Assembly (NCBI GenBank): GCA_905178155.1
Contig: CAJINV010000008.1
Span: 3,745,420 to 3,809,419, forward strand
Direction: 5' to 3'
Origin: Amoebophrya sp. A120
Lineage: Eukaryota > Protista > Dinoflagellata
DNA length: 64,000 bases
In this document: one piece after another, positions 13,282 through 47,642 of the stretch
Numbering within the stretch: the stretch's first letter is position 1
Layout of the letters: each line of letters opens with the position of its first letter
Made by a program: the position numbers and the translations under genes
The notes under the pieces: generated by a model
The model's input: the letters and a program-made list of their open reading frames with translations, nothing else
The model's database searches: none
Told to the model about the DNA's origin: nothing

Positions 13282-16200
13282 CAGTCCGACCCGAAGTCCT
13301 GGAAGCAAGGGAGCGGCTGCCGACACTAGACGACCGAACAGGAGGCGGCGGAAGCTTTGGAGGAAGCGGAAAGCTCCCGTTCTTCGGTGCCTACAACAAG
13401 TACGTCGAACACATAAGCCAGCCGCGGGGCGCACTGGACACCGGCCCCGCCGGGAACCGTTTGCAGGATGCGGAGGGCGCCGGCATTGGCCACGCTGCTC
13501 ACACCCACGAAGCGCTCGACGCGCAAGCGCAGTTGGCGGACGACGCCGCAACTGAGGCTTCAGTAGCTCGACGGTGGGGGGATAAGAAGTCCAGCACGAG
13601 CGGCGCTGCGCGGCGAAGGGCGAAGCGGCTAAAGCGACAAGCAGGAGACTGCGCGGCACCGGCGCACCAGGGAGCGTGGCCTTCAGTCGGTAAGACGCTC
13701 AGGACGGCGGCGGCGGTAGTAGCCTCCTGCGGCGCTGCCATGATCGGGGCGATCGTCCCTTGGCCAACAGCACGGCCGCCAGCACAGCAGGATGACGTGT
13801 TGACACTCTCGCCCACCAACGAGACCGTCGCGCCGCCGAGAACTACCAGAATGCTGTTCCAGAAGGCGAAGTGGTCTGTCTATCGGGAGGAGATGACGAA
13901 GTACCTCCAGGCGCACCCAGTAACCCAAAAGACAACACTAGCGGACCGGGCGGAGCTATTCAGATCAGCAGTTGTCGAGGCGTCAAAGAAAGCGATTCCC
14001 CGGGCCACCGCAAAGCCAAGGAGACGAGCAGAAAAACAGAAGCAGCAGACAGAACTTGAACTAGCCATCGCCATGCGAAACTCTTGCAAGCGCATGACGA
14101 TCGTCGCGAGGACAGCCGAGGGCCGCCAGTACTGGTCCGACCAGACAAGACAAGCAACAAAGCGCATAGTAGCAGCGGAGAACGACCGCAAGCGGAAGGC
14201 GTTCCGGCGGGAGGCAGAGCGAGCCCAGCAAACAACCGCGGGGGCGTTCCGTTTGTTGCGGCAGCTCGAGGCAGGAGGGCGACCCGTTCGAGCCGAAGCG
14301 AAGGTCTTGACCCACCGAGGGAAGCAGCACAGCCAAGGCCTGGCAACGGTCTTTGCAGAGCACTACGGAAGCCTCCCGCAGCTACCGCAGCAAGAGGTAG
14401 ACAGCGCAAGGACGGAGGCGGAGGAAGTGTTCCGGGCGGAGATACCAAAAGACGCAGGCGTCACGTTCTCCCTAGACGAAGTACAGGCGGCCATCTCGTC
14501 CCAGGCAGGCTCGTCGGCGGCAGGGCCGGACGGAGTACAGGGGGCGCAGGTGAAAAACCTGCCGACGGAAGCCAAAAAGTTTCTAGCCAATTTCTTCAGC
14601 GAGTGCGCGACGACGGGGGTCTGCCCCAAAGCGTATAAACGGGAAAAGCTGAAGCCGCTCCTCAAGGCAGGCAAGCCCAACCACCTGCCGGGCAGCTACC
14701 GCCCCGTTGCCCTCACGTCCGTGGTGTGCAAAATCCTGGAGCGCTGCGTGCAGCAAAGGGCGAGGCAGCTCTTCGTCTCCTCCGGCCTCCCAAGCAGGAG
14801 CCTCAGACAGTACGGAGACAGCAAAGGGCGAGGCGCGGCAGAGCATGTCGCAACCCTGGCGGCCCGTGCGCAGCAGACCTTCCGAAACGGGCGCAAAAGG
14901 GCCACGGTCCTCCTGGACCTCAGTACTGCTTTCGACCGCCTAGAGGCGAACAAGTTTGCCGCCGAGGCGCTCCGATCCCGCTTTGTACTCCCCCCGCAGC
15001 AGCGCGTCCAGTTTGTCCTGCTGGTCCGGTGGATGAGAAACTTCTGCCTCGATCGTTTCCGAGTAGTAGAATACGACGGCGGCAGAACGGAAGCCCATGC
15101 GGTCCGGCAAGGGGTGCCGCAGGGCACAGTCTGCGGCCCGACGATATGGTGTTTCTTTTTCAACGCAGTTGCCCGCTGTGTGGAAGACCTGGCGCCGGGG
15201 TTGGATGTGTTCCTGTACATGGACGACGTAGCCCTGTCCCTGGACTACATCGACCCAAAACAAGCCCAGGCGATCCTGCAGACCGCCTTGAACCGCATTG
15301 CTGCTTGGTGCTCCTCCTCCAACATGGAGCTTTCCCCCGGCAAGTGTTCGGTCATAATCCTCCAGCGAATGTACGTCGGGGAGACGCAGGAGTTGCCGCT
15401 GCACATCAACGGCGTTCCACTTCCATACGACGCTGCGCCGAAGTTTTTAGGCGTTTCGCTGGATAGGGAGATGAAGTTCACGACCCACGCACAAAAAACC
15501 GTCGCAAAAGCAAGACGCCGTATGGCCGCAGTGCGGGCATTGAGCAGGAACAGTTGGACGCGGGGGGCCGACATTCGGGTGATGTATCGGCTCTTCGTCG
15601 AGTCGCTCTTCCGCTACGGCTTGGGCACGTACTTCCCAGCGCTTCCACAGAAGGAAAAGGCCGAAATGGAGCAAATCCAGCAGCAGGCGGCGCGCCTGAT
15701 CCTCGGGGCCCCGAGAACAGCAAACGGGGAGGCTGTGGTGTTTGAAGCAGGCCTGCAGTCTCTGAGCGACTTGACAACCGTGGAGGCAGCGGCCTTAGTC
15801 GGCCGAGCAATGTCGCGACCACAAGGAGACCCCCTGCGAACCGAGGTGGAAAGGGGCGCGCAAGTAGTCGATTGGGTGGATCGGGCGTTCGAGGCCATCA
15901 CCGGGTCCGCTCTCCCAGGGGGGACAGAAGTACAGGTCGAGCACGGGGGCTGTCTGCCGCAGGACGGGATCAGCTCCGTGCATTGCGCGATCGAGGCCGG
16001 AAAGCTGCGCTTTGATCCCTATGGCGTCCCGGACGTCGAGCTGCGGCGCGCGACGCAGGCCGCGGACATCGCGATCTACACGGACGGCTCGGTGCGGGAA
16101 TTTTGCTACTCCGCCGGCATCGTGGTAGACGGGGGCGAAAACCTCTACGAAGAGTACGCCTGGCCATGCGGCTGCTTTGGTGACTCCTTCGACGCGGAGC

Positions 16201-19200
16201 GACAGGCTTTGTTGGGTTCCTTCATGTTGATGCAGGACCGAAGCGAGTTTGCGGGGACGCGTGTCATCCTGGTGACCGACTCCCAGTCGAACCTGGAGGC
16301 CCTTTTGAATCCCCGCATACGCGATGAGTCCGATGTTGGTCTCTATAATGCACTGGCGGGAGCAGTCGAGAACGTCCAGCATTTGTGGCTGGTCTTTACG
16401 AAATCCCACCGGAACGTCGTCGCAGGGAACGAGGTGGCCGACAAGTTGGCCTCGCTAGTAACCAAGCACAGCAGCAACTTCAACGATACGGGCGCCCGCG
16501 TGACACATCGACAAGTGAAACAAGAAGTGCAGCGATCAGTCAAAAACGCAACCCGCAAGTGCCTCCAAGGGCGGGGGGAGAAAGCGCCAGACGCGGAGGG
16601 AGGTTCCAAAACCCTCAGCACCCTGCTAGGGGTGTCGGAATTCAAGAAGAACCCAGTGGATTCCGTCTGCGCTACACGGGAAGACGAGATCTTGTACAAC
16701 TGCGCCCGCTTGGGTTTGGCCTGCTCGGATAGCACGGGACGGGACTACGCTTGTCCCTTCTGCAGTAGGAAGGGTGTTCGAGGAGAAGAGGCCTCCACCT
16801 GGCACCTCGTCGCGGGTTGCCCAGAGCTGGAGAGCCTTCGGATTCCGCCAGAGGATGCCTGCGAAGAAGTAAACGGACCGTTCGTGTGGGGTCCGCATTT
16901 GCTTCAAGACGACCCAGCCTGGGGGGTCGAGTACCTGGCCTGCGTCCGCGATCTCCTGAAGGAGCCGTACGAAGAAGAAGACTGCGGGGAGGACTGTGAT
17001 GACGACGACGAGGCAGACGAGAGAAGCATTGCGGCGCCGGACGAAACTGCAGATGACGGGTGGCAAGGCGGCGGCGAACTCGAGCAGGACGCAGATCCGG
17101 AGATGTTGTGGGCAGCCGCAGGCGACTACGTCGGGGTGCCGGAGCGGGAGCGGAGCCATGCGGTCGTTGTCCCGGGGGGACGTTCGAGAGGCTGTTGGAG
17201 CCTCGCTGCCCTAACCGCAGCAGGAGAAGCACTTGGTTGGACGGGTCCGGGGATTCGTCGTCCAGGCTGCAGCGTCTCCGTGGGGAACCTCGTACACCTG
17301 CCGTCCACCAGCCGAACAGCGGATGTTGGTGTACGCGCGACCGACCTCGCGCAACAGCCCTGGAACAGCAGCCACGACCACAAATTCCGACTACAACTAG
17401 CAGCATCTGCAGCAGCGAGAAAGATCAGCGTTTGCAAAAAAGTAGCGCCAGGACGTCCCCCACCAACCCCGCGCACCCACACAGCCGGCCCAGAAGGGGG
17501 GTGGGGGCGTCCGGCACGCAGGAGGCTGGACACCTCCCCGCCGCCGAGCCGACCCATCCATTACGACCTCCACGCTCCTCTCCACGATCTATTCATCACG
17601 ACCTGCCGCCTGTCGCCAGTTCCCGCCAACCCCACGTTCCTAACGGCCCCACCTCCGGAGCCCAGCAACAACCGCACGCAAGGGCGGGAAGCTGCTGGTG
17701 GAAGCTCGGCAACGGCAGTGATCTTACGACGGTATGGTGTCGATTTCGGGGGGAGCGTAGAGACGGCAGAAGCAAACCGAACCGGGACGCAGCAGCTACA
17801 GGACCAGCATACCGTGCTAAGAGCAAAGCAGCAGAAGGAGCCCCCCACGCGACTGCCGGGCGCCAACACCAACCAGTCCCGTTCCCCGGAGCCCCAGACC
17901 AGCCGCACACGAGCACAGGAAGCCGGACACGGAAGCCGGGGCGCGGGGAGTCGCGCGCGGGTGCGGTCCTGTCGCTTCGGCGCAACGGGAGTGCTCCTAC
18001 GGCAGTATGGTGTTGATTGCAGACGGGAAGCAGGGACGCCAGGTGCAGACCAGTCAGGGACGCAGCAACGCAGGGGCCCGCATACCGTGCTAAGAGCAAA
18101 GCGGGGAGAAGAGCCCCCCACGCGAACGCCGGGCGCTAACAACAGCCAGCCGACGCAACAGCAGCGCCAGCAGACAACCCGGAACACGGGCGACACAGCT
18201 GCCGCGACACCTCTTCTGCTCATAACCGGTTGCGGCACTCCGGGCCGCGGAACGAGTTTTGGCCGCATCACCTGGACATCGGAGCGCGAGGCTCTGGGAA
18301 CGACAACTGAGTCGGGAGGTGGACGACGCCATGAGGTGGACCCAAAAACTACCGCTGCGCTACGGGAACTCGACCACACCAAGCAGAGCGATGACCAAGC
18401 GACAGGCGGCGCCCAGTTTGTACGGGGCAACAAAAACCATCCACCTGCGCCACGGCTCGTCATCACCGGCAAACCGGCGCACATCTTCGACTTCTCTTTG
18501 GCGCCAGGCGGCAGCAGCGACGACCACAAGTTCCGCCTAGCAGCATCCTCAGCAGCGAGAAACGTCAGCGTTTGCGAAAAAGCAGCGCCAGGACGTCCCC
18601 CACCAACCCCGCGCACCCACACAGCCGTCCCAGATGGGGGGTGGGGGCGTCCGGCACGGTATTCTAGTACTTTGCTGCTATGTGATGTTGTTAGTTTATC
18701 TCCGCGTGCGATTTGCTTGGTCTCTCATGCTCATTTCCCTCCGGTGTTTCCCTGTCCGAACTTCTCAAAACAGCATGGGCGCAGGAGGATTGACGCCGGT
18801 TGCAGCCCCAATTTCCCTCAGTACCTGCCGCTCCGCCCCGTCCACTATACGTTCCCCGCGACCCGACCTACGAAGCTCTCCTCCGACCTCCCACAAGCAC
18901 ACGACGCTGGAGACGGAAGCTGGAGTTCGAGGGATTTCGCTCGGCCGCCTCCACGGTCCTGTTGCATCGCCGAGACGGGAGTGATCTTACGACGGTATGG
19001 CGTTGCTTTCGAACGGAACGGAGGGACAGCAGAAGCAAACCGAACCGGGACACAACAGGTGGAGGACCGCCATACCGTGCTAAGAGCAAAGCAGCGGAAG
19101 GAGCCCCCCACGCGACTGCCGGGCGCCAACACCAACCAGCCGACGCAGCAGCAGCGCCACCAGACAACCGGGAGCACGGGCGACACTGCCACCGCGAGGG

Positions 19201-20075
19201 AAAAAGCAGCGCCGGGACGTTCCCCGCCCACCTCGCGCGACCATACCAGCCACCGCCTGGGCAGGTGGCGGGGGCGTCCGGCATGGACTTGGGGTCTTCT
19301 TTTCCGCTTCTCGCCCGGGCCCACGTGCACTAGCCAGAGCCTTCACGTCCCGCGCCGCTCGCTCTACCACGATATCGCGCGAGCCTTCCCGACCCGGACC
19401 TGGTGGACCCCGAGGCCGATCGGGTTTCAGCGTCCAACTGCGAACGACCAGCAACGGTGGTTCCTGCGGGCCGTCCAGTTCGGGCGCCTCGCCCTTCCTG
19501 GTGGAAAACAACTTTTCCGTAACGATACCGGCGCCGGCGTCCCCCACCTGTTGATAAGGAGAGGGGAGGCGCGACCCAGGTGGGGGCGCCGGAACAGGTA
19601 TAAAAGTGTTGTTTTGAGCAGACGATGGACTGGTGCTGGTGCTTCTTCGTTTGCTTTCTCCTGCCGCGTGGTGCTGTTCCCCCAACACGACCTTCAGGTA
19701 GCCCACCGCTCGTCGCTGTGTTCCTCACGTACTAAACAGAACCACCGGTCCGGCCTGATCCGCTTGCACGTCGACGTCGCTGACCGAACTCGCTCGACCC
19801 GGACCTGGTGTAGCCGCGAACTGGCTACTGCAATTGCTCTAGGCGGACCGAACCCCCCCGGTGCCCCTGTCCTGCTCGGGTGGAAATGCGGGAGGGGGCA
19901 CCGGAGCAGGTATTATGTGTTTGTCCGGATGTCGTGCTCCTTCGTCCTGCATGATCCACATGCCGTTGTCCTGCGTTCCCACGACCACAAACAGGTGGTC
20001 CACCGATGGTGCCCGGAGTCAGGCCGACGGCCGCCGGCGGATTTTTCCGCTAAACAGCGGCTGAAAAAATGCTAA
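13266..20075 (+). mobile_element. Non-LTR retrotransposon (I/Ingi-group-like) ORF: reverse transcriptase + RNase H + Cys/His motif + long repetitive extension
   Basis: RT motifs SAAGPDGV, YRPVALTSVVCKILER, LLDLSTAFD, GVPQGTVCGP, YMDD (~15217), FLGVSLD; RNase H IYTDGS (~16074), SFDAERQAL, VTDSQS, SH..GNEVADKLA; CPFC..HLVAGC (~16750-16820). No N-terminal APE endonuclease was recognised. Confidence 0.92.
17366..19290 (+). repeat. Interspersed structured repeat modules (A x3, B x3) in the 3' part of the RT element
   Basis: Module A at ~17366-17520, ~18511-18658 and ~19198-19283; module B at ~17718-17877, ~17985-18200 and ~18975-19190; each module contains an internal inverted repeat. Confidence 0.85.
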
Positions 20076-20730
20076 AAGTAATCGGCAGGGCGGCGGTTTC
20101 GCGCCGTTCGCCGNNNNNNNNNNNNNNNNNNNNNNNNNNNNNNNNNNNNNNNNNNNNNNNNNNNNNNNNNNNNNNNNNNNNNNNNNNNNNNNNNNNNNNN
20201 NNNNNNNNNNNNNTCAGGCCGACGGCCGCCGGCGGATTTTTCCGCTAAACAGCGGCTGAAAAAATGCTAAAAGTAATCGGCAGGGCGGCGGTTTCGCGCC
20301 GTTCGCCGCCCCGTCCGATCTTTCTCAGTTGCCCTGGCGGGGGGCCGCTCGTGCGTGGTTCCTTTTCGGGGGAAGTGCGACCGCAAGTGCCGCGGGCGCC
20401 TCGATGGCTCCGGCGCGCTGAAAGTTTATGCTCCGTGCTGAGTATGTGTTCGCGATTTGCGCAGGCTTGATGGTGTTCTCGCTGAAGATCTTGACTTTGA
20501 TGGTTTTAGCCCGTGAGGCGTTATTGCGTTGCGCGTTGCATTGTCGTCGTGCCGGGTTTCGGTGTTCCGCTTTTTGAGGTATCTAGGCACTGCAAATGTT
20601 TGAAAAAGGATGGAACTTTAGCTAACAGAAGTAAGATTTATTTTGTATCCTTCGGCAAGACGCATTACTTCCCTGAGTTCAGTCCTTGAGTTTTGGCCTG
20701 ACCGCGCTGCTGGTCCCACCTGGCAACAAG

Positions 20731-23700
20731 ATGGACAGTGCTCCGGCGAGAGCAACGGCCCCCGGCACAAACGACGTCGATATACTGGCGCGGCATCTCA
20801 TTAGTAGCGACAAGATTCGACTGCTCCGGGGGATGCTGATTCTGCCGCACTCGTTATGCCATTGACACCATGAGAAAAAGCAGAAGCTTGTCATGCGTTC
20901 TGGGGTTTTTATGGAAGTTTATATCTTGCCCCCACAGCAAAATGCTTTTTCTCATTTTGACAATTGCATAGCCAAGCAGAACCAACGTCGGCCGATATGG
21001 GAGATTTCTGATAAAAGTGCTGACCGAAACAGCATCTGGCGAAACCGCTACCGCACTGCAGCTTATGGGAGAAAAAAGCGAGCAGGCGATAGGGCGGATT
21101 TTTGAAAAGATCGAGGCGAGGGTCATGCTGGCGTATTTCCGGTGCCAGGGTGACCATGTTCGGTGGACCGCGGGCCAGTGCCATTCCCGGGGGCGGGGAA
21201 TATTATCCCACATACAGTTTGATGGGACGCCGCTGTGCTTGTTAACCTCCGGCGACTATGTGACCGCGGACTGTTTTGGGGTTAGTCAGTGCATCGCGAT
21301 GCCGCGCGCGGATTCTTCGCACAGTGCTTACCGACTAGCCTCCCCCGATGGGTTTGACCAAGTACGCTATTGGGTCGGGGGGCAGGTGGTGCAAATGCTG
21401 GAGGGCCACACGGATTCGATGGTCCACCAAGTCCTCCGCCAGCGCACGATCTACGTCCGAACTTTATTCGATCCGCACTCTCCGGATGGTCTCCGGGGAT
21501 TCACGCTAAGCCGTATGCACATGACAAATGCCAGTTTTGAGCTGCAGTGCGGAAACTATCTCAAGAAGCCACACCAGGAACTTGTCATGCTCAGAACTTT
21601 GTCATGCAGCGCTCAGAGATTTGTCATGCAGCGGCGCAATTTGTCATGCAGTTTTCATACATGTTGCACCTTCTTGAGATAGTGACTAAACTGACTTCCC
21701 AAAGCTGGCTTATTTTTATTTTGCAGTGCGGACTACGGGGCAGACGGCGGCAGTGCAGGGGTATTACGAAAGTACTGCGCATTGCAGCACGAGATGGGTC
21801 TACTGGTGGGTGGGCCGACCACTTTACTACAGTCGTTGCTGGACTTGGTCTTCGTCGATACCTGTTATCAGAAAAAAAACGTCTCTGCCCTTCTTGAAAG
21901 TGTTTTTATGCATGACATTTCGCAAGTATAATCACGATGAAAAGGCGCTTTCAAGAAGGGCAAATACTTTTTTTTTGCATATTGCCGTGATCCACACGAT
22001 GCACTGCGCGATGGAGGACGGCCTGCGGTCTTTGGAACTTTTTGCAGATGAAAAGCATGACGACGACATCAAGCGGATCAGCAACGCCATGCGGAAGAGC
22101 GGCAAAGCTCTGCGAGAACACGTCCACGACTTCGCTCTCCAGCATTACATCTGCAAACCGCTCAAGGACCCGGAGCTGTACGCAGAAACTTTGAAGTTTG
22201 TCTGTGGCGCAGGGCAGGAGGGGCTGCGGGATCGACTTATCCGATTGGGTCTGCGGCACGAAGGGCACGCCCTGGCAGGAAATTTGCGATTTTGCGAAGA
22301 TACAGTTGGGGAGGTTGCGGACTGTTTGTTGGAGATCCGCTACAAGCAGATGCAATTCGGGCGGGTGGGTAACAGCCTACTCCCAGCAAGGGCTGCGGCT
22401 TTGGCAGATATAGTCGGGATTCACCATCTTGCCGAAATGGTGATGAAAAAGGGCCGCCGCAGGTTCTTCATCAAGCAAGCATTTGATACGACCACCGTGC
22501 GCTACCGAAAGGAATACCCGAAGGCCATCTGGAGCATGATAACCCTCCTGCCTGTCTTCGAACACGCAGAGAAGACCCTCCTGCGCGACGACTCGCTGCA
22601 GGGCATTTCAGCGGTTCAAAAAGCAATGGAGGAAGAGCTTGCAGCATGGCGGAGCACGGATTTTCGAAAGTATTGGGGCTATTCCAGTATTCCGGCAGAG
22701 GAGATCGACGCACAGCTCCACAAAGTTTATCTCGCAATCGATATCGCTGCAGCTTCGGCGTACGCCTTGGCCTTTCGGAGATTGGAGCACGCCCCGTACA
22801 GCCACTTCCTCGGGGCCGGTCTCACGCTGGAGAAGATTCTGGACCGCGTCCGCAACACACCAGTCGAGAAGGCGGACTTCGGCTTCACCCGGAAGTTGCA
22901 GCAGCTGAGCCAGATGGCGCCCAAGGTGTTGGAGAGTCACAAGTCCAGTCTGGCGGACGTCTGTGGTTTGCTTCTCACCGTTCCGCAGTCGGTGTTCATA
23001 CGGGAAAAGCTGCACAAACATAGCCACCGACACAACTTATCCTCAAAATCCTTCTCCTCCGTAAACGTCCTGCAGTGGAATTCCACCTTCGTACGAAGTG
23101 TCAACCTCCAGCCACCTACAGCAAGTCGAGATTTCCGCATGAGAGTATTTTCTCATGCGGAAATCGCAAAGAAAGGTGCATGGCTGGAGGATTTGTTTTT
23201 CATACCAAGTGGAGCAGAGTATGTGTCTTGGGTCACAGAACCGCGCCTCCCCTACCACCGGCCAGGTCCTGTCCTGGGACGAGCTTGCCCTGCAGTCCAA
23301 CGCGCACAAGATTACTCGCCCGTCCATGTTCGTCGCCGAAAATGCAAAAAAGAATATCGGGGGGCAACAGGCCCAAAGCAAGTACTTCGCGTCGATGATG
23401 GAGACCTTCGCTACGAAGAACATGGCAGGGGAGACGGAGTACCTCACCAGCCACGTGGCCAAACGCCGGGCGGAAAAAGTAGAGGGGGAATTGGAAAAAC
23501 AGGCACGGGAGTTACAGCGGTACGCGGACCGGGAGAGCAAGATACAGCGCAGGAAGACTTTTGTCACCGGGATCAACACAGACAACCTGGACGACGAAAT
23601 TACAGATGGCAGTTGGCTCGAAGCTTGGCATGACCTCCCCGTCGACTGCTCGGGTGAGCTTCGACAGATGTGCCAGCAGGACTACGACAAGGATCTCGCC

Positions 23701-24982
23701 GAGGAGGTCGATCGGATGATGATAATGACGCCGCAGACGTGGCCCTACTTGGAATACTACGAAGACATGGACGGACGGGTCGCGGATCTCATCCGGCTGC
23801 ACCGCGACGACGCCCTGGGCGTGGTAGGGTCCATCCTGCTGCTGCGGAAATACGCTGATGACGACGAAGGTCTGCCGGTAGGTTGTCGCGGCCTTTCGGA
23901 TCAATTTTGTTTCGTCCCAGCCGTTCATTCTCTCGACCGAATTGCTGGCCCGCGAGGGCAATGACGGAAGTTTTCCAACCCGGAAAACCATGCTTCGCAA
24001 GACCGGGCTGTTCTTCAACACAACGAAACTGGACGGGGAGATATTTGTTGTGCCGGAGGAAGAAATCGAAGTCCGTGGGCCGGCTAGTTTGATAGTAGCG
24101 TGCAGATTCAACTACACGGACATTGCGAGGTCTGGCTTCGCGAAGTTATGTCCTGGGGCGGGGATCCGGAGAAAAAAAAAACCGCCTGGCGCAGCACAGT
24201 TCAAACGCCTGAACAGCCCTGCGATCAACAACTACCAAAACAAAAAACGCGACTTGGGCCGCGTAACAACGGTGGACGAGCTGAGCAAGTACGCCGACGA
24301 CGAACTGCTTGAACGGCTTGGCAGCTGCCTGGCAGACCTGAAAACCGATCGCGAGAAGTACAAGCAACTGGCGGGACAGGGGGGAGACCAGCTGCTCGCG
24401 CGAGATATGTCGATTAAGCTGAAGGGGGGGAAGTTCAATCTGCTGAACAGGGGGCAGACATTACGCTCTCGGATTCTAGGCTTCGAGACAGTTGGCGTGC
24501 ATTTTTCCAAGTTTGTCATGCGGTTTTCCTTGCGCAATGCACGCGCATCTTTTGGCAGCCTAGATTCTGCCCCGGGATAACCGACCGAGAAGTTCCAGCT
24601 GGACCCGCGTCCAGCAATTTGCCCGTTCTTGAAGGAGCTCGGCCTCCAGCCTGTGAAGGACTTCAGTCTCTCCGTGTGGAAGACAGAGGAGCGCGCAATG
24701 ACGCACGCGCTAGCAGTGCGGCGGTTTTACCGAGCGGTCTTGCGGCTCGGTGCACACAGGGGTGGTGAAAACGATCAGCCGGAGCACACAGCGGCATCGC
24801 GTTTGGCCCTCGAGGAGGACACGATAATGGGTCAAATTCGACGCGACAGGAAGTTTCTCGAAGACCAGCAGGAACTCCACACCCACAACCGCGAGCAGTT
24901 TTTCGACAAGTTGGAACTAATAGCCCGCACCTGTTTCTTCAGACTTCCAATCAGCCCGGATCTTGCTGCCCTCCTGCACTAG
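20731..24982 (+). CDS. Putative DDE transposase with CxxH motif (hAT/MULE/P/Kolobok-type fold), multi-exon
   Basis: The inferred spliced product has candidate catalytic D (HIQFDGTP, 21221), D (YGADGGS, ~21743), CxxH (DTC|VIHTMH, formed across the 21866-21986 intron) and E (SVFIREKLH, 23004). A canonical 43-nt intron lies at 23878-23920. The junctions near 23175-23265 and 24447-24584 are uncertain. Confidence 0.55.
20855..20970. mobile_element. TIR introner in the transposase gene
   Basis: TATGCCATTGACACCATGAGAAAAAGCA / TGCTTTTTCTCATTTTGACAATTGCATA; TSD not preserved; removing element+5 joins LILPHS|CRTNVG in frame. Confidence 0.75.
21514..21727. mobile_element. Strongly degenerate TIR intron
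   Basis: Left TATGCACATGACAAATGCCAGTTTTG vs right reverse complement ACTGCAAAATAAAAATAAGCCAGCTTTG; four TGTCATGC motifs inside; element+5 = 219 nt keeps frame. Confidence 0.5.
21866..21981. mobile_element. TIR introner splitting the CxxH motif
   Basis: TATCAGAAAAAAAACGTCTCTGCCCTTCTTGAAAG / CTTTCAAGAAGGGCAAATACTTTTTTTTTGCATA; removing 21866-21986 yields TGT|GTG ATC CAC (C-V-I-H). Confidence 0.8.
24447..24579. mobile_element. Inverted-repeat intron, boundaries uncertain
   Basis: Core IR CTAGGCTTCGAGACAGTTGGCGTGCATT / AATGCACGCGCATCTTTTGGCAGCCTAG; right end ...GGGATA; contains TGTCATGC and covers the in-frame stop at 24578-24580. Confidence 0.45.
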
Positions 24983-25373
24983 TAAACAACAGCGGAAGTT
25001 GACCCGGAAGGACTAGTCTTCATGCTAGTACATATCTTGCATGTGTGGCGCCGTATGCTAAGTAGTTGCTACTAGACCTAGAACGAAGATAATCCGCAAT
25101 ACAGACTCGGACTGCTTGAATTCTTCCAGTCATTTTTTTGAAGATCGTACAACGACACCGATGTAAGACTCCTGTTCCGATGTTCCTCAAAATTGCGCAT
25201 TACAAATTGTTGTTGGTTTGGTTCCCCAATGATGCTGTGTGGCATTGCGAGATCCTCTGTAGCATTACAGATTNNNNNNNNNNNNNNNNNNNNNNNNNNN
25301 NNNNNNNNNNNNNNNNNNNNNNNNNNNNNNNNNNNNNNNNNNNNNNNNNNNNNNNNNNNNNNNNNNNNNNNNN

Positions 25374-27663
25374 CGCAGTCGGTGTTCATACGGGAAAAGC
25401 TGCACAAACATAGCCACCGACACAACTTATCCTCAAAATCCTTCTCCTCCGTAAACGTCCTGCAGTGGAATTCCACCTTCGTACGAAGTGTCAACCTCCA
25501 GCCACCTACAGCAAGTCGAGATTTCCGCATGAGAGTATTTTCTCATGCGGAAATCGCAAAGAAAGGTGCATGGCTGGAGGATTTGTTTTTCATACCAAGT
25601 GGAGCAGAGTATGTGTCTTGGGTCACAGAACCGCGCCTCCCCTACCACCGGCCAGGTCCTGTCCTGGGACGAGCTTGCCCTGCAGTCCAACGCGCACAAG
25701 ATTACTCGCCCGTCCATGTTCGTCGCCGAAAATGCAAAAAAGAATATCGGGGGGCAACAGGCCCAAAACAAGTACTTCGCGTCGATGATGGAGACCTTCG
25801 CTACGAAGAACATGGCAGGGGAGACGGAGTACCTCACCAGCCACGTGGCCAAACGCCGGGCGGAAAAAGTAGAGGGGGAATTGGAAAAACAGGCACGGGA
25901 GTTACAGCGGTACGCGGACCGGGAGAGCAAGATACAGCGCAGGAAGACTTTTGTCACCGGGATCAACACAGACAACCTGGACGACGAAATTACAGATGGC
26001 AGTTGGCTCGAAGCTTGGCATGACCTCCCCGTCGACTGCTCGGGTGAGCTTCGACAGATGTGCCAGCAGGACTACGACAAGGATCTCGCCGAGGAGGTCG
26101 ATCGGATGATGATAATGACGCCGCAGACGTGGCCCTACTTGGAATACTACGAAGACATGGACGGACGGGTCGCGGATCTCATCCGGCTGCACCGCGACGA
26201 CGCCCTGGGCGTGGTAGGGTCCATCCTGCTGCTGCGGAAATACGCTGATGACGACGAAGGTCTGCCGGTAGGTTGTCGCGGCCTTTCGGATCAATTTTGT
26301 TTCGTCCCAGCCGTTCATTCTCTCGACCGAATTGCTGGCCCGCGAGGGCAATGACGGAAGTTTTCCAACCCGGAAAACCATGCTTCGCAAGACCGGGCTG
26401 TTCTTCAACACAACGAAACTGGACGGGGAGATATTTGTTGTGCCGGAGGAAGAAAACGAAGTCCGTGGGCCGGCTAGTTTGATAGTAGCGTGCAGATTCA
26501 ACTACACGGACATTGCGAGGTCTGGCTTCGCGAAGTTATGTCCTGGGGCGGGGATCCGGAGAAAAAAAAAACCGCCTGGCGCAGCACAGTTCAAACGCCT
26601 GAACAGCCCTGCGATCAACAACTACCAAAACAAAAAACGCGACTTGGGCCGCGTAACAACGGTGGACGAGCTGAGCAAGTACGCCGACGACGAACTGCTT
26701 GAACGGCTTGGCAGCTGCCTGGCAGACCTGAAAACCGATCGCGAGAAGTACAAGCAACTGGCGGGACAGGGGGGAGACCAGCTGCTCGCGCGAGATATGT
26801 CGATTAAGCTGAAGGGGGGGAAGTACAATCTGCTGAACAGGGGGCAGACATTACGCTCTCGGAATCTAGGCTTCGAGACAGTTGGCGTGCATTTTTCCAA
26901 GTTTGTCATGCGGTTTTCCTTGCGCAATGCACGCGCATCTTTTGGCAGCCTAGATTCTGCCCCGGGATAACCGACCGAGAAGATCCAGCTGGACCCGCGT
27001 CCAGCAATTTGCCCGTTCTTGAAGGAGCTCGGCCTCCAGCCTGTGAAGGACTTCAGTCTCTCCGTGTGGAAGACAGAGGAGCGCGCAATGACGCACGCGC
27101 TAGCAGTGCGGCGGTTTTACCGAGCGGTCTTGCGGCTCGGTGCACACAGGGGTGGTGAAAACGATCAGCCGGAGCACACAGCGGCATCGCGTTTGGCCCT
27201 CGAGGAGGACACGATAATGGGTCAAATTCGACGCGACAGGAAGTTTCTCGAAGACCAGCAGGAACTCCACACCCACAACCGCGAGCAGTTTTTCGACAAG
27301 TTGGAACTAATAGCCCGCACCTGTTTCTTCAGACTTCCAATCAGCCCGGATCTTGCTGCCCTCCTGCACTAGTAAACAACAGCGGAAGTTGACCCGGAAG
27401 GACTAGTCTTCATGCTAGTACATATCTTGCATGTGTGGCGCCGTATGCTAAGTAGTTGCTACTAGACCTAGAACGAAGATAATCCGCAATACAGACTCGG
27501 ACTGCTTGAATTCTTCCAATCATTTTTTTGAAGATCGTACAACGACACCGATGTAAGACTCCTGTTCCGATGTTCCTCAAAATTGCGCATTACAAATTGT
27601 TGTTGGTTTGGTTCCCCAATGATGCTGTGTGGCATTGCGAGATCCTCTGTAGCATTACAGATT
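25374..27663 (+). repeat. Near-identical duplicate of 22984-25273 after an N gap (probable assembly artefact or second haplotype)
   Basis: Identical except six substitutions that I could find, all to A; begins right after the gap at 25274-25373. Confidence 0.85.
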
Positions 27664-27808
27664 TGGTTTTTTTGAAGTTCCCGTAAGACTGCCTGCACCA
27701 TGAAAAACGTTTCCTCTTCCCCTTTAGAAATTGGGTCGCACAAAGCACAAGATACTGGGTGCGTGCGATAGCATACGGCGCCTAGATAGTTGCAAAAAAG
27801 CACGCAAG

Positions 27809-28299
27809 ATGTCACCGAAAAGTAAAAAAATGAAGACCAATTCTTCTGCTGCTAGTAGCGGCAGCAATGGCGCTGGTGCGGGGGCTGCCAGTAGCGGCAG
27901 CAACGTCCCGGCACAGAAGCAGGGGGCGAAGTTTATGAATGTGGAACTGTGTCAATCTTAGTATGCGGCGCAGGTAGTTTCCCCGGCAGTTCTGCCGAGT
28001 TTCGACGTCGCTTGCAAAGCCAGACGGCTTTGCTGGAAATGCGTGTAGTTTTGCCGTCGGGGCACAGCCCCGACGCCAAAACGTTCGTCTTCACTGTGTC
28101 CCAGAGCATTTCGCACTCAGCATGACACACGCACACATTCATAAACTCCAAAAACAAATCTTCGAGCAAAAGCAGTCTGGTGCTGAATGAGACGCAGATG
28201 CCGATGGCAATGGAGGTACAGCAGTACACTTCTTCTTCTGGCAAACAACAGCTTCGTCTTCTCATGCAGATCACCGCCCATGAAGAGAGCAAGACTTGA
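27809..28299 (+). CDS. Small hypothetical protein (~90 aa, 2 exons) inside the large element
   Basis: MSPKSKKMKTNSS...QGAK|FKNKSSSKSSLVLNETQMPMAMEVQQY...HEESKT* after removing 27934-28148. Confidence 0.4.
27934..28143. mobile_element. TIR introner
   Basis: Left TATGAATGTGGAACTGTGTCAATCTTAGT vs right reverse complement TATGAATGTGTGCGTGTGTCATGCTGAGT; flanks AAGTT/AACTC. Confidence 0.7.
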
Positions 28300-28324
28300 C
28301 ACCGGAAATGGAGTTTTTTGGGGA

Positions 28325-28560
28325 ATGCTAAAACTTTTAGCAGAGCCAAAAAACCGGGGGTTCGGGTCCGGGATTTTCCCGGAGACGGCAAAATCGGGAA
28401 GGAAATTCGATTTTCATTTTAGCAGACTTTTAGCAGAGAATTAGCACCTGTTTTAGCATTAATTTTAGCATAGTTTCAGCATCGAAACCGGGTCGGAAGT
28501 TGGGGGGTTTAGCAGGGAATTAGCATGTTTTTAGCAGAGAATTAGCATACTTTTAGCATA
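28325..28560 (+). repeat. Array of ~12 TTAGCA motifs
   Basis: TTTTAGCA/ATTAGCA repeated, mostly at ~11-nt spacing; the same motif occurs in both TIRs of the large element. Confidence 0.8.
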
Positions 28561-28929
28561 TTCCGCGGGATGCTTCGTTGCGATGATACCCCGGCGGAAT
28601 ACGGGTGATCAGCGCCCCCAAAAGGCGGGGCAAATTTTGGCGCGGCGAGGGGGGGGGGTGGGGAAGCCGAAATCGTGGGTCGTGCGCAGGCCGCGATGCG
28701 CGACTGCGTTCTTCGTCACCCACGGGTTCTTTTCGGGCCGGCTGGTCCGTTCCGCGCTGCGCGTGTATTTGTGGCTGCGCAGGTGCCGCAGTCACGTTCT
28801 CGCTTTTGCAGCGCAATGTGGGATTGCGCGCTCCCGCGGTGCCAAGCACGTCTCTTCATGGGCGCCCTGGGATCTGCAGTAGTTTTTCCGGTCCCTCCAG
28901 CAGCAGTTGCAGTGCCTTACAACACAACT

Positions 28930-31900
28930 ATAAAACAATTGCGTCTCAGGTCGACGAAGCAGAACCTGTGAAAGAAGGGAAGAACCGGAAACGTAACAAA
29001 GCCAAGGCCAAAAACTTGAACAACGCGGAGGAGACCCAAGAAGCCAAGGCCGCGCAGAAGGCGCAGGACCTGAAGGACATGACGCAGTTCGTGAAGGATT
29101 TGAATCGCAACAACAAGAGGGATTGCCTTTTCTACCTCAGCCAGCCCTTGTTCCCCGAAGGTCGCAACGCCTTTCAGCATGTTACTCATGCTTACCTCCC
29201 CGGTATGAAGAAGGAGATGGCGCGACACAAAGTCATTACGGGCGAGGACAAGAAATACTGGAAACTCTCCCCGACGGAACAGGCCGCCCTGCGGAATGTC
29301 CTGTTCAAAGCCCGGAACGAAGGCGCGCTAGCAACCTGCACACTCATCCGGCCGTCGTTGGAAGCAGCCATGAAAAAAGCTCCGCACATTTCCGCCGCCA
29401 TGAAGGCGGAAAAGGTCCGCAAGTGGCTGCAAAAGCACGGGGAACAGGTGCAGAAAGAATTTCCTGACTGGGGGCGGAACTCGAAGAAGGACGACGAGGA
29501 CGACGACATGATGCAGGATGACGACATGTACGACGGAAACGCGATGGTCTCGCCGCCCCTTATGCATGTGATAACGCTTCCGAAAAATATCTGCACTGCC
29601 TTTTTTGCATGGTCCTTTTTCTATGCAACTTTTGAAAAAAAGAAGTCTGTCATGCATTTCCCGCACTTTGGACTTGCTTTCTGTCATGCGAGTCGCTAGA
29701 GTTGCTTCTTCTATTTCAGCTCAGCCTCGCGATGCATGTGTTTGTCGAGCGTGGCTAGACCAGAAAACTTCATTTGTCATGCTAGAACTGGAGGGCGTGT
29801 GCTGCCTACAAGGAGTCTCAATCCGGAGTCTTGAGCTGCAAACCCAGTGCAGATGTTGTTTTTTCGGAAGCAAATTTGCAATGCATATCGCCGCCGCCAG
29901 CAGAGGTGAACACGTACGGGTACGGGATGGGCGGAACTAATGACGTGCACAGATATGAATGCGAAAGTCCTGTCATGGTCACAACGTGGTTGCATTCTGG
30001 GCCGGAATAGCGTCAGCTATCCCGGGAAAAAATGCAACGAATACGTGGCCATGACAGGACTTTGCGAGCTCATACCGACAGCCAGGAGAACAGCCAATCC
30101 GGGGCAACAGCTATCAGCACCGGGGTTGTGGACGAGAACAGCATGTCCAGAGCCATGGTGGGCAGTACAACTACTTTCGGGGCCACGCCGAACTTCTCCT
30201 CTTCTTTTCTTGGAAGTAACCCGTTTAACCAGCCCGCCCAGAGTGGGGCGATGATCGATCCGTCCGCAACGCCACCTGCGGCTTCGTCTCTCGGCAACCA
30301 GATGGTACAGGGTAGCGGGACTGGGGGAACGAACACAGTTTCAGCGTCGGGTCTCCGTGCTCTTTTGAGTTTCAAACCACCTCCGGTGATCCAGATGCCA
30401 CAACCCAAAAAGCGGAGCCCTCTGCTTGATTTCAAGCCGCCCTCCATTGAGACGGCGGAACGGGAGAGAAAGGAGCGGCAGGCGAAACAGTTGAAGGACG
30501 TGAAGGAGACGGCCTTCAAAGACCACCACTGGGGCCTGAATCGCACCGAAATCGGCGACGAGAAGAAAGGGATGCTGGCCTTGCTGGTTTCCGCGGACAC
30601 CGACGAAACGAACACGGACATCATCGATGGCATGCGGGCTGCAATCGAGGGAGGAAAGAGTATTTTTTTCTTTTTTAATCGCAGTGCGGATGATGATCCG
30701 AAGGTGAATGATGATGATTTCTTGCTTGTCTCACCACTCTGTAGCTCGAAAGCCCCAGGATGTAGCTCGGACGCGGCTTTAAGACTCCGATAGAAGTCCA
30801 GCGATTTCGTTGAATTTTGCAACCAAAAAGTAGCGCACTTCGACACTTTTCAATCGCAGTTATAAAGCCGCATCCACCCAGAAGATTTGGTCGTAGTTTT
30901 GCTCCCCCACTGTAAATCCGGCGTCGTCTTACTTTACAGAAGCGCGCCGGCTGATTTCTTGACTCGCCTGTGGGCGGGCGGCGCGTGTGGGCAGAAATTC
31001 GCCTGCAACCTGTGTCGCCATTTATTGAGCATGACAGATTTCCTTTCACCGAAAAAACAGCATGACAGAATCTACATCCCCATCTCCTTCATTTGTCACA
31101 ATTTACCGCTACAGATGCGTGGGTGGCCCAGGGTCCGTACGACGACATGAGCGCGATTTTGTTGGCGCGGATCAAGTGGCGGTGGGACAAGGCCACAAAT
31201 GGCCCGGAGTTCGTCGAAGAGTAAGTCTTCACTCATACTGGTTTTGTCCTTCTTCTAGATTTTTGTCTTGCGTGTGTGAGTATCTGTCGCGCGTTTTCCC
31301 CTACGAGGACCTCCTATTTCCACACTGTGCCGACATCGTGATAAATTGCTGCGCTTTTTGCAAATTAGCATGACAAATTCATAAAATGAAAAACAACTAT
31401 CACGCAGTTACATCGACTTCATCCGAGTCGTAGACCCGGATCTCGCCCGTGTTCATTTTTTCTACAAGGAGAACAAGATCGAGGGGACCAAACTCTTGAA
31501 CTTTTCGGGTGGCGAACAGGAGGTGAAGGAGATAAAAGCCTGCAACGATCGAGCGCATTTGCCGTGCTATGATTTCTTGGATTCCCAGCTGACAACCGGC
31601 CTGGCAAAGCACGAAATCAAGCGCAAGGTTGTAAAGGTGAGGAAACTACTGCTTTTGTTTTACTACAGAGCTACGCATGACAGATGAACTCGAAGCCACG
31701 GCGCAGAGCATAACTCTCCTTGCATGCAGGCTCGCCTAGTGCGGTGTCTTTTGGCTCCTTAGTTGTGGGGGCCGTATTAGAGGGATTTTTATGTTTGTAT
31801 AACCAGCGTGAGGAACTCTTGCGCGGTCCGAAATCGCACAGAAGGTTCTAAGCCTCGAGATCTCTCGTGGCATCTTCGCGTCCTGTGTCATGTTTTTCCT

Positions 31901-33282
31901 CGATGAGAATTTCCCCAAAAAATGACCCAGGTATTCACCGACGCCCAGAACACGAAGCTGAACATCCTCGAGGTCGCTGCGGAGGAGGAAAAGATGGGGA
32001 GTGAGTTAAGTCGGGTCGAGGAAGAGGCCAAGAAAGACGGAGTGCTGGCTGAATATTGGGAAACGGTCGCCGACTGCCTCGTCACCTTGAGCAACTTCAC
32101 CAAAGATTGTACGAAAACTGGTCCGGGAATCGAGTCGGTTTAGGATTATTCTTTTTTGCATGACAGATGTGATTCGCGGAGGCAAGGAAACAGACTCGAT
32201 TCGCGTCGTTTTTTATTCGATAACACACCTGCAGCGTAAGTACTTGACGTCCGTTCCGATCGAGGAGTGCCAGTCCACGCTCCCACAGGCATTGGAGATT
32301 GCGAAACATCGTAAGGCACTCGTGAAGCAGCTCGACCAGCTGCTGAAGAAGGGGAAATCGACCATGTATAGTCTTGCTGTTTTTGTCATGCGTGAGGACT
32401 GTGATTGTTTTTTGTCATGCAAAAAAAAACCATCTCATGAAAATTATACACCATCACTCTTTCCACAGGTTTGACCTTGTGAAGGTATTGGCAAAATGCC
32501 CGACCCAGTTGGCGTGGGAAAAGAAGCTGTACTTGGCGGAATGCGACAAAATTAACGAAAAACAGCGCCAGTTGCTGGACAAGGTCGCTGAAGATGTCCA
32601 GTCGCAAAAACCAGCCATCGCCCCGTGGATTTGGGGCGGTTATTGGGACGATGCGAAGATTGCGATAGAGAACTACCACCAAACCGCACAGCCGGACCGG
32701 AAGAAAAACTTCATTGCGGGGGAGAGTAATGTGAAAAGCAAATATAGGCCGCTCTATCGGTGGGTTTACAACCGGGTGGAGAGCCTGGACTTGACCGCCG
32801 AAAGTCTACCGGCGTACTTCGATAAGCTCAAGGAGCTGAAGCCAACGATCGACCTGGGGGACCAAGGAAGTACTTTTATTATGTTGATTTCATGTTGCGC
32901 GCATGACAAATTTTGGATAGTCATCGTAAAACGCATGACAGATTTGAAGTATTATGCTCCCGGTAGCTTCCCCTGGTTGGTGTCCTCGCGTGCCCAGGCT
33001 GCTGGCTGAAGTGGATGATTTTGGTTTAGCTCCCCGCATGTAATGCTTTATGCGTGTCCTGTCGGAAGCAGTGTTTTCCCCATCTTCACCACAGGTATCG
33101 AAACGGCGCGCCAAGTCTGCCAATGTTTGCGTTGGGCGGATGTGGTTTTATCGACGGAAAACATCGGGGTACTGGAGGAGTATGAACAACTGGTGGGAGA
33201 CGGCTCGGTGGCGCTCAAGGAGGAGGAAAGGAGGCAGAAGGAGAAGATCGAAACTGCCCGGCAGTTTATGAACACACGATGA
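28930..33282 (+). CDS. Large multi-exon hypothetical (charged, coiled-coil-rich) protein inside the large element
   Basis: Chain of coding-like + strand ORF segments (28605-29560, 29893-29953, 30080-~30660, ~31410-31635, 31922-32135, 32160-32365, 32469-32868, ~33095-33282) separated by AT-rich introns carrying GCATGACA. Exact start and several junctions are unresolved. Confidence 0.5.
29561..29887. mobile_element. TIR introner
   Basis: Left TATGCATGTGATAACGCTTCCGAAAAATATCTGCACTG vs right reverse complement TATGCATTGCAAATTTGCTTCCGAAAAAACAACATCTGCACTG; element+5 joins SPPL-PPAEV into the frame of ORF 30032. Confidence 0.75.
29954..30074. mobile_element. TIR introner
   Basis: TATGAATGCGAAAGTCCTGTCATGGTCAC / GTGGCCATGACAGGACTTTGCGAGCTCATA; element+5 = 126 nt removes an in-frame TAG and keeps frame. 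Confidence 0.8.
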
Positions 33283-36200
33283 GAATACAGCGCGATACTT
33301 GTGACGACCGAAATTGAAAACCTGAACCATCACGGCCCCACGAATCTGTTTGGAATGCGACCAAGACGAAGATGAATCATGAACAAAAAAATCTTACTTC
33401 TGAAATAGCTAGCTCCATCCTTTTTCAACCTTTCGGCACAGCACGGATTTTCCTACTTGCATTGCACAGCCGGACCGCCCGCGTGGGGTCAAGTTGAGGA
33501 CAGGCATCTTCAGTCCTTCCGCTCTTCTGTCTTCGTGTTTTGGCATGTTCTTCGTCTTTTTGATTTCGCACAGACAGGAGGCGTTGGCGCATGAACAAGA
33601 GCGACAAAACCTGGAGGGATTGCACGCGAGAGACAGCAGGAAGAGCTGCCGCAGTCACACCCCCCTGCGGTTGGGGGTGCTGCGTAAACAAACCGGGGCC
33701 AGGGCCCTCCTGGTTCCCACGCAGAGGTGCCCGGCCGGCTCGATATTGGGAGGAGGCGCGCCGCCTCTTCCTTCGCGAAGCGCGCCGCGCCGCCCCTTGC
33801 GCCTACAGGGAAAAGGGTGAGGGCCCGCCGCCCTACCACCGGCCGCCGGCGCTTTCCGGGCTAGCCGCGCCACAGGCCCACGCCTTATGGGCCCGCGGGG
33901 CCTGATTTCGGCGGCCCCCCTTGCGGTATTTCCCCGGGCCGGATTTCGCCCACGCCGAGTTTTCCGCTCGGCCGTAGAGCGCGCGCGCCCTTTTTCACAT
34001 TCCGCATTCAGGGCGGGGGCTAGTGGCGCGGCTATGTTGGTTGGGCCCTGGCACCTGCAGTCTTTTGCGGGTTGGGCAGGCGGCGCGGCCCCCTCTCGGC
34101 TACCCCTTGCCAAATATTTTTTTTAGCATACATTCAGCACCAAATTACGAAAAAAGGCCGGCGGCAGCCGTCGGCCTGATCATCACGACAGTATCTTTGC
34201 ACCAGCTGCAGAGAGAAAATAAACCGCGACATCTTCAGAAGGTGTATCCTCGTCCACGTACTCGAAAACGAAGCCGCGCGACATCCCTGACTCTGCGGTT
34301 GCTCGCGGTTTCAAAAACTTCTATAGCCGTTCTGGACTTCAGGACTGAAACCCTTTCAGTGGTGAGGAGCTATTTTTATTGTGTCGATACGAAAAAAATA
34401 CAGTAGCAGTAGGTGTGCCTCGAGATAAAGGTCGCGAGATGCGCAGTCGCTCCGAGGGAGATGAAAAAGTAGCCTGTTCTACTACATCTGTGTACTAGCA
34501 TTATGTAGTTCTTGGTTCTCTCTTTCATGCCTTCTCCAGTTGTGTTTTATTCGTCCGCGGAAGCAAAGACAGCTGCTCCTGCTCGTGCTGTTTGCATGGA
34601 ATACCTACACGACACCGTCGCCGTCTTTTCGCTTCCGTTGTACTGTCTGTAGTCTATTTCCTTAAAGATCTGGACGACAATCGCAACGACAATCTGACTG
34701 CTTGTTTTTAAGCCGACGAGATGCAGCAGCTCTTTTCATTCCGCTTTTGCACTTTGTTTGAAGGTCCACCACGACGGCTGCATTTCTGAAATTTCAATTT
34801 ACTTCGTTCAAAAATTGCAAAACCTCGTACTTAAGTTTCATTTATATCACCTGTTTTAGCTGCGCGCGCGCTTCCGCTTTCAACACTTACAATATTTCAA
34901 CTTTATTTCGCTTGTTAGTTTGTGTAACTAAACCGTATTTTTTCAGTCGTGTGTGTGCGTGTGTGCGTTCGTCTCGTAACTTGGTGCGTTCGTACCCTGC
35001 TCCCGCATGACGGCTTACAAGAATTTGCTAGTACAACCGGAGCATGCTGATATATTTTTTCCTGTCAAGGGGAGAATGAAATTTTAAGAAATCTTTGTTG
35101 TGTCTGTTTTCTTCTGTTGTTTAACTTCATCACTTTCGTTCAGCATGGGACACTGTGACGGGCGACGTAACAGCGGAAAAGCGGGCAAAAGACAAAGAAA
35201 AACAACGCGAAAATATGAAATTTTCTAATCGAAACGGTAACGGCATCATACTTCTGTGCCGTGTGCCACCTGAGCTTCTTCATGATGTCATGATAATGCT
35301 GCGTCCTGGTATCTAAATCTATCAATCTTCCGGCGTCATTCACAAGGAGGAGAAGAATCTGCAGTCCATGCCTGCGGCTTGACATTGTTGTACCACCTGT
35401 ATTTTACCCAGCCTCTATTTGTACTAAACTTTTACTTCATCATGTAACTCATCAGAACTTCTTTACATCACCGGTACCTGTTGAAAGCCAGCATATGCAA
35501 AATCATGTCTTGGAGGGACGCAGTCACGACGCGAAAAGGACCCAGTGCCATTGATGTTTCTCAAGTGTCACCTGATCATCTTCAGAACTAGGTGAAGATG
35601 AAAGTCACAAAATGAATGGTGGCGAGGCTTTGTAAAATGCAAATGAACTTCAACTTCTTCGGATGCAATAACTTCAGAAGATGCATTTTTATCCAGCATC
35701 GACGAAGGGAAGATCTTAACGATATTCACTCGCCTAGCTGTAGCCCTCTCTGAACAAACCGCTTCTGTCTTCAACTTCATATGGATTCCACTTTTGCCGG
35801 GTGGTTCGACATTTTCAATGTCAAAGCTTCCGTCTCGTGTTTCCACATTTCGTTTCTTCCAAAAAGTACGAAGAGAAAATCACTGAAACAGCTTTTAGAA
35901 TTGATATATGGCACCGAGACGTTGGTACATACTGGTTAGCGTAGCGGCCGAACGAGGAAAAGAAGGAGCTCCAAATTGAAAAGCGAGCCTCTACTGATTA
36001 CACTTTCCTTTGATAGTTTGACAACTTCTTCTACTACGGCACAGCCTCTTCACCTTTACTCACGCTCTGTGTTATATAGTGGCCCCCTCGGGAGGAAGAA
36101 CGGCCGCAGAGGGAACTACGCCCGGCTCTATGTACAACTTCTGTTTGTTATTTCGATACGTATAGAGTGACGACCTGCACCTAAAATGGTGCAGTCAAAA

Positions 36201-47190: not shown

Positions 47191-47642
47191 AGCTCCTGCG
47201 TGTGCAGGGGCCCCGCGGGCAGGCTTCTGGGGCATTGGTTTCGGAACAAACTAGCTAGGCCCGTTACGTGGCCCATGAGGGTGGTCCGGGCCGTCGCGCC
47301 GGCAGGAGTGTGACGTCGGTCTGAGGTCTGACCTTCGCCACTGCCAGCGGGTCACGTCCTCTGGGAGGGGGCGGTGCTCTGGTGTGATCCGGTTAGAAGG
47401 CCTCGCAGCTTTAAAGGGCGGCCGTCGGACCGCCCAGGGGCGGGGCTTCCGGGACTCTGAAGAAAGGGCAACGGGGTTTCATGGCGTCGGAGGCAGCCTG
47501 GGTGCTGGCTCGGCGCAGCCAAGCAAGCTTGTCTCCCCCGCGGCGCCCGGTGTGGATGTGCCGGCCCCTGTCGTCGGGTGGGCCCGCGGAGACTGTTTCT
47601 ATTTTGTTGTCATTGCGCGCGCGCCCGAAGCGCTTTGTTTTA

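Follow-up and report, generated by a model that had tools for sequence, protein, structure and literature searches.

A hidden, introner-split gene for a putative Hermes-like transposase in a terminal-inverted-repeat element of Amoebophrya sp. A120

A hidden gene and its homologues

The 64,000-nt stretch of Amoebophrya sp. A120 contig CAJINV010000008.1 analyzed here (the window) holds an element bounded by terminal inverted repeats (TIRs) and, within it, a six-exon gene interrupted by five introns that resemble the introners of this genome (Table 1). The gene had been proposed as a cryptic C-x2-H-type DDE transposase that no single open reading frame (ORF) shows and that standard gene callers would miss. 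In our reading it is probably the gene for a Hermes-like DDE transposase of the cut-and-paste type, belonging to an 11.6-kb element, and its five hairpin inserts would need to be removed by non-canonical splicing.

Table 1. Features of the transposase gene and of the element around it (window coordinates)
Feature	Position	Strand	Remarks
Transposase exon 1	20731..20853	+	tblastn with P0001 residues 15-65; ATG at 20731
Intron 1, introner type	20854..20974	+	TAT...ATA arms, 121 nt, TT...CA ends, target-site duplication decayed
Exon 2	20975..21512	+	Homology; first catalytic Asp D124 at 21221-21223
Intron 2, introner type	21513..21731	+	219 nt, GT...GG ends; splits codon of invariant His221
Exon 3	21732..21864	+	Homology; second Asp D225 at 21743-21745; first 2 bases of Cys265
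Intron 3, introner type	21865..21985	+	121 nt, TT...GC ends; splits Cys codon of C-x2-H
Exon 4	21986..23090	+	His268 (21993-21995), helical insertion domain, Arg391, Glu605 (23004-23006); Hermes match
Intron 4, introner type	23091..23208	+	TAC...ATA arms, 118 nt; homology on both sides
Exon 5	23209..24460	+	Homology; one-base frameshift at ~23878-23884; stop of upstream frame at 23962-23964
Intron 5, introner type	24461..24583	+	TAC...ATA arms, 123 nt
Exon 6, C-terminal end	24584..24982	+	Homologous to C-termini of P0003-P0005 and P0007
TIR DNA transposon	20214..34180	+	11,577 nt without artefactual duplicate; likely two identical copies
Left TIR	20214..20277	+	TCAGGCCGACGG..., TGCTAA motif at +52
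Right TIR	34116..34180	-	Same TGCTAA motif ~52 nt from end
N gap and second copy of 22984-25273	25274..27663	.	Likely assembly artefact
Central TIR-motif array	28324..28558	.	11 TTAGCA, 1 TGCTAA, 11-bp spacing
Second multi-exon gene of element	28587..33283 (limits approximate)	+	No Pfam family

The exon structure was established by homology with P0001, an unnamed 1,130-aa protein of Amoebophrya A25. Searched against the window with tblastn, P0001 placed exon 1 at 20773-20919, exon 2 at 20975-21505, exon 3 at 21734-21865 (52% identity, in the frame first proposed) and exon 4 at 21981-23129; the spliced model aligned with P0001 residues 15-847 at 38% identity over 833 aa. At the level of sequence, these matches confirm the hidden spliced gene. 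Protein searches with the gene matched no A120 protein in a collection whose inclusion of the A120 proteome was unchecked, consistent with the gene being unannotated.

A HMMER search with exon 4 over 1.84 billion representatives yielded nine matches, eight of them homologues, complete or partial, that come from A25, AT5.2, environmental contigs and an MMETSP transcript; the closest protein homologues are from Amoebophrya. The ninth, P0008, a repeat protein matched over 38 aa, was dropped as spurious. Whole-length family members (CAD7970938.1 of A25; g19132, g5496, g20286 and g19289 of AT5.2) carry no annotation beyond a gene number or the label "unnamed", and the homologue at locus L001 is intronless. 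Word-indexed protein searches with exon 4 gave no match, metagenomes held no relatives of exon 4, viral contigs held no relatives of P0011 or P0007 and no instance of the TIR pattern, and the ESM Atlas returned no usable matches for P0001 or P0012. Beyond about residue 1070, the C-terminus of P0001 itself diverges from the family, which suggests an annotation frameshift or a missed intron.

The original prediction expected homologues to conserve D, D, C-x2-H and E, and they do. In an alignment to which two distant relatives were added, the invariant residues (P0001 numbering) are D126 (7/7), D224 (8/8), C264 (8/8), H267 (8/8), R392 (10/10) and E608 (9/9), corresponding to D124, D225, C265, H268, R391 and E605 of the window protein.

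The same homologues bear on a rival transcript model, which the original prediction had set against itself as the read-through frame of ORF 21726. In this model, splicing at a GT-AG pair (21513-21726) and translation straight through insert 3 yield a protein that lacks both the second Asp and the C-x2-H motif. The pair exists and the frame is open, but the resulting private 86-residue segment resembles none of eight homologues (best E 0.54), whereas exon 3 in its proposed frame is similar to four of the eight at E ≤ 5e-6. The read-through model, with intron 2 spliced as GT-AG and insert 3 retained, also scores below the spliced model against all six homologues compared (486 versus 557 bits for P0001), and we regard it as scarcely credible.

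Five introner-type introns and their cut register

Three inserts had been proposed, at 20855-20970, 21514-21727 and 21866-21981; all are present, and removing each with five further nucleotides keeps the frame. The count is nevertheless five, introns 4 and 5 having been missed. The inserts begin with TAT in 3/5 cases and TAC in 2/5 and end with ATA in 4/5, the right end of the intron 2 insert having decayed to GCAGT; inverted repeats starting with TAT are the mark of A120 introners in the available part of PMC7789003. All five fold into hairpins (z −2.5 to −7.6 versus 100 base shuffles), and each contains a CATGA(C/G)A motif that also occurs in 6/7 host introners but nowhere in 3,550 exon nt.

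Of the 3-5-nt direct repeats that mark A120 introner junctions little is left here: the flanks of the five introns match at only 4/25 positions, whereas 8/10 host introners of the window carry a perfect 5-bp direct repeat. The missing repeats are read as decay with age. On sequence grounds, the inserts are old passengers, with target duplications gone and hairpin arms kept. Because the direct repeats were lost while the arms persist, this pattern suggests that hairpin arms, not direct repeats, guide splicing.

As the target duplications have drifted, the six possible cut registers give different residues. We infer that the cut falls 1 nt ahead of TAT and 4 nt beyond ATA (−1/+4, or k = 1) in all five introns. 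This register alone yields the His preceding Tyr that is present in 8/8 homologues; the Cys at intron 3 and the Phe at intron 4 each need k = 0 or 1, and −1/+4 additionally gives Ser at intron 1. A spliced contig of run X3 over the host introner at 5181-5446 joins 5176 to 5448 with zero mismatches, which excludes k = 0 (0/+5) and k = 5 (−5/0). With this register, the TAT of the insert occupies positions +2 to +4 of the intron, much as the T-A does in a GTA donor. As it predicts, T stands at +2 in 9/9 of the commonest A120 non-canonical splice-site pairs (Table S4 in the accessible portion of PMC7789003). Because old introners interrupt the codons of invariant active-site residues, the non-canonical cut position is fixed without RNA.

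Several details of the original prediction change accordingly. Its +5 cut gives way to −1/+4, fixed by the invariant His, the Cys and the one spliced host junction. All of the peptides it quoted are present, but the Arg before YGADG becomes His, and its TGT|GTG junction is likely TG|C-GTG, with the Cys codon itself split. Its claim that expression depends on non-canonical splicing is strongly implied by the His221 and Cys265 codons, both split by inserts without GT-AG pairs. X3 and X8 contigs skip host introners; an RNA junction of the transposase gene itself was not observed. Splicing of this gene is accordingly a prediction from its sequence.

Fold, element and rival readings

An AlphaFold model of P0001, built from a 12-row alignment (mean predicted local distance difference test score, pLDDT, 54), is confident over the helical region 263-603 (pLDDT 70-93 over most of it). 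Three structural searches put Hermes first: Foldseek (ranks 1-3; probability 0.95, 0.89 and 0.80; E 0.017-0.043), the VIA wide search (rank 1 of 48,161 chains; Z 7.9, root-mean-square deviation 5.5, 223 residues aligned) and a second-look search (ranks 1-5; Z 9.6, root-mean-square deviation 5.8, 218 residues aligned; next non-Hermes 6.1). The alignment runs from model residues 257-609 to Hermes 258-573 and would put E608 on Hermes residue 572, which we take to be the Hermes catalytic Glu. It would also set P0001 H267 on Hermes H268 (numbering from PMC5225508 and PMC4763223, each available in part).

Together with the invariant residues, these matches support the proposed divergent C-x2-H DDE transposase and make the protein a likely distant relative of Hermes, as modeled. 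The proposed RNase H-fold check came out in part: Hermes is the best match of the homologue model, but the RNase H core itself is of low confidence. A BFVD fold search returned nothing beyond coiled-coil and tape-measure matches. The fold searches listed no structures of MULE/IS256, P or Transib transposases, which does not exclude those groups. A single-sequence fold of exon 4 (pLDDT 42.6) was discarded.

The element around the gene is delimited by a TIR pair of 64 nt at 72% identity. In DNA run X1, which may be the source of the window's assembly, a single 11,561-nt contig starts at 20214 with a depth of 82, against 43-47 for unique neighbors, and two different left-flank contigs (depth 46 and 41) overlap its first 30 nt and join exactly at the TIR. 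From the doubled depth and the two flanks we infer that the element is present in two identical copies and moved recently. The link first drawn between gene and TIR element is supported by the TIR pair and by a contig that begins at the TIR. The duplicate across the gap at 25274 (6 differences in 2,290 nt) is taken as a likely artefact because the X1 contig fits the element without it. Repeats across 100-N gaps at 20019-20113 and 25374-27663 are likely scaffolding artefacts at a collapsed repeat.

In both left flanks T precedes CAGG, and A follows the right end; the simplest reading is a TIR that begins with TCAGG. The TGCTAA motif shared by the two TIRs occurs again 12 times within 28326-28558, and the central array, which holds 11 of the window's 16 TTAGCA, is possibly a transposase-binding hub. 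An 11-bp inverted pair is centered on the element midpoint, itself uncertain by up to 8 nt, and there are 14 such centers in the element. A related TIR family (TCAGGCGGACGG...; depth 153 in an X1 contig, or roughly three to four copies), seen on window positions 20226-20273, is a candidate partner for mobilization in trans.

Locus L001 (10001-19973) has a layout similar to that of the window element: the homologue is followed by a 364-aa ORF, by 11-bp repeat arrays in convergent orientation (16039-16572) and, on the same strand, by a second gene. The second genes of the two loci match at E 0.009 in one pairwise comparison, with nothing in tblastn. Candidate ends of the L001 element, near 8822 (TAGGC) or 9513, are not significant. 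Several introns of the window's second gene look like GT-AG introns, and at least one insert (~29562-29887) is of the introner type. Inside the element, a 49-nt, 78% inverted pair has one arm ahead of the transposase gene (20595-20643) and the other beyond the second gene (33385-33433).

Two further observations concern the window outside the element. Directly to its left, a long ORF (13260 to ~17100) shows reverse-transcriptase and RNase H-like motifs by eye, as in a non-LTR (long terminal repeat) retrotransposon, and no X3 or X8 contig extends past 13671 there. At 47642-49220, a 48-nt, 92% inverted pair (AGAGGCC...) surrounds 1.5 kb, with no target-site duplication visible.

Whether the gene is a transposase at all can be questioned: its product could be cargo, or a domesticated nuclease-like host protein whose Hermes match reflects a common helical bundle. 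The missing family match, the low-confidence catalytic core, the few homologues and the non-significant L001 ends are compatible with this. Against it stand the order and spacing of D, D, C-x2-H, long helical domain and E, a structural match spanning exactly that Hermes interval, and the position of the gene inside a TIR element with two flanks. We consider this account unlikely.

Several observations weigh against the Hermes-like transposase reading. What was modeled is the A25 homologue rather than the window protein; the presumed RNase H core of the model (residues 116-262 and 604-717) falls below pLDDT 50, the Foldseek E-values for Hermes are not significant, and a Z below about 13 can reflect a common arrangement for helical domains. 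With Z moderate for such a domain, the case rests on motif order and fold jointly. Pfam, NCBIfam and PDB-sequence searches gave no match for the family: no Pfam match rose above noise in 9/9 homologues at E ≤ 1, and the family profile found only three chance matches among PDB sequences. Between the window's two flanks, which may come from different copies, no target-site duplication is visible, either the 8-bp one of hAT elements or another.

A spliced junction of the gene is also absent from the runs compared with it, among them X3, X5 and X6. Two short X3 contigs lie on the gene, and the sole one reaching an intron (24471-24648) is unspliced across intron 5. Runs X5 and X6 have 0 reads on the gene, X5 not containing the organism (97/98 reads match only partly). 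Contigs mark presence, not level. Finally, the frameshift of exon 5 recurs in DNA run X1, which has no indel there, and the copy may be a pseudogene.

Continuity to 24982 had been claimed, but homology switches frame between 23878 and 23884, where there is no room for an introner, and the first stop is codon 885. The frameshift truncates the protein at 884 aa; without the extra base there would be about 1,182 codons, so that about 300 C-terminal residues are lost. Under one rival, the gene belongs to the same family but is a dead copy, no longer spliced and moved only in trans, by a related element. The frameshift shared with X1, the lack of a seen junction and the deeper TCAGGCGGACGG family in the same run fit this account. 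The catalytic residues are all intact, however, 884 codons stay open with a single lesion, the hairpin arms were kept while the target duplications drifted, and a putative 43-nt GT-AG intron (23878-23920) might skip the frameshift, at the cost of a strand conserved in P0006. We give the dead copy somewhat less than an even chance.

If the Hermes-like transposase reading is right, host non-canonical splicing would remove the five inserts and restore the codons of His221 and Cys265. The resulting enzyme would bind at the TGCTAA repeats of the two ends, cut by means of D124, D225 and E605 with H268, and paste the element elsewhere. With target duplications gone and hairpin arms kept, the gene was probably spliced and used over a long period after the inserts landed. 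The recent duplication of this frameshifted copy would then likely be the work of the truncated enzyme or of a related element acting in trans.

These results bear on how introners spread. Farhat et al. 2021 (PMC7789003), in its available part, reports a pair of putative transposases for A25 but none for A120, from a search with Repbase-derived domain profiles, and took this outcome as ruling out transposase-driven introner spread. With this Pfam-invisible, transposase-like family present in an A120-type genome, as in A25, AT5.2 and environmental contigs, that negative result does not hold as it stands. The accessible sections of PMC12130899 attribute A120 introners to several transposable-element classes, and its Dataset S2 (diverse TIR transposons) may bear on novelty; those of PMC11282704 name no transposase. 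No prior description of the family was found in the literature searched, with most subscription journals and Repbase outside its scope.

Whether an introner mobilizer exists can now be tested with the family profile. That this family is itself the missing mobilizer of the TAT...ATA introners seems to us very unlikely. Both left flanks have T before CAGG, and if CAGG is the end, the window's right flank permits a 5-bp duplication (ATCAT), the introner length, and excludes one of 8 bp. The TCAGG/CAGG ends and TGCTAA repeats are nonetheless unlike introner ends, the T...A is explained more simply as belonging to the TIR, and copy number is low and the gene frameshifted; the caution against such a claim in the original prediction is upheld. 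On a bolder reading, this would be the first known representative of a Hermes-related transposon lineage, so far undescribed, in Amoebophrya and other dinoflagellates. The lineage would make 5-bp target duplications and its relatives would drive the introner invasion; with the catalytic codons of the enzyme cut by introners, the parasite's relaxed splicing would gate the machinery that spreads them. This reading has, in our estimate, a small chance of being correct.

Comparison with known transposases and introners

The closest likeness is to the hAT transposase Hermes (PDB 4d1q, 6dww, 8edg, 8sjd, 2bw3), which shares D, D, C-x2-H, a long helical insertion and E, and is the best structural match along the insertion domain as far as the Glu. 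Short TIRs with a repeated sub-terminal motif are a further hAT likeness, and the hobo_AC end TAGGC (PMC3014272, partial text) resembles the element's CAGGC. Against the terminal motif YARNG, CAGGC agrees at 4/5 positions if the end is C; counting the shared T/A as part of the TIR makes the end TCAGG. The role of the C-x2-H motif in transposases is treated in PMC4763223 and PMC7780238, both available in part.

The family differs from Hermes in its length (1,110-1,180 aa, with ~500 extra C-terminal residues), the lack of a Pfam hAT or BED domain, its probable TCAGG terminus, and the presence of a second gene and a central motif array. The C-terminal hAT dimerization domain, a feature according to the accessible part of PMC4763223, has no Pfam match in nine homologues at E ≤ 1, which may reflect divergence. 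Concerning the conserved Trp between the second Asp and the Glu (Hermes W319), the sequence alignment shows invariant Arg392 followed by F, M, L or A (Val in the window) and never by W, and another column (313) is W in 6/9.

MULE and IS256 transposases share the C-x2-H and a helical insertion domain (PMC5225508 and PMC7780238, in part). The insertion is ~340 aa here against 65 aa in ISCth4. Long TIRs and 8-10-bp target-site duplications mark that group; the TIRs here span 64 nt at 72% identity and do not look long and near-perfect. Kolobok elements duplicate a TTAA target, and TTAA is absent at both element ends in the window, which speaks against that group. P elements have D-x2-H, a THAP domain and a GTP-binding insertion, whereas the motif here is C-x2-H, with no Pfam match. 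The protein would work like a hAT transposase, as judged from motifs and model, and the assignment is provisional because there is no hAT domain match and no Trp after the Arg, and because target duplication and terminus are ambiguous.

The inserts, in turn, resemble the A120 introners of Farhat et al. 2021 (PMC7789003, as far as available) in their TAT-started inverted arms, hairpin, internal motif and predicted removal of the element plus 5 nt. They differ from them in sitting in a transposase gene and in having lost their direct repeats, and it is this loss that reveals the cut position which the Fig. 3 legend of that paper left open.

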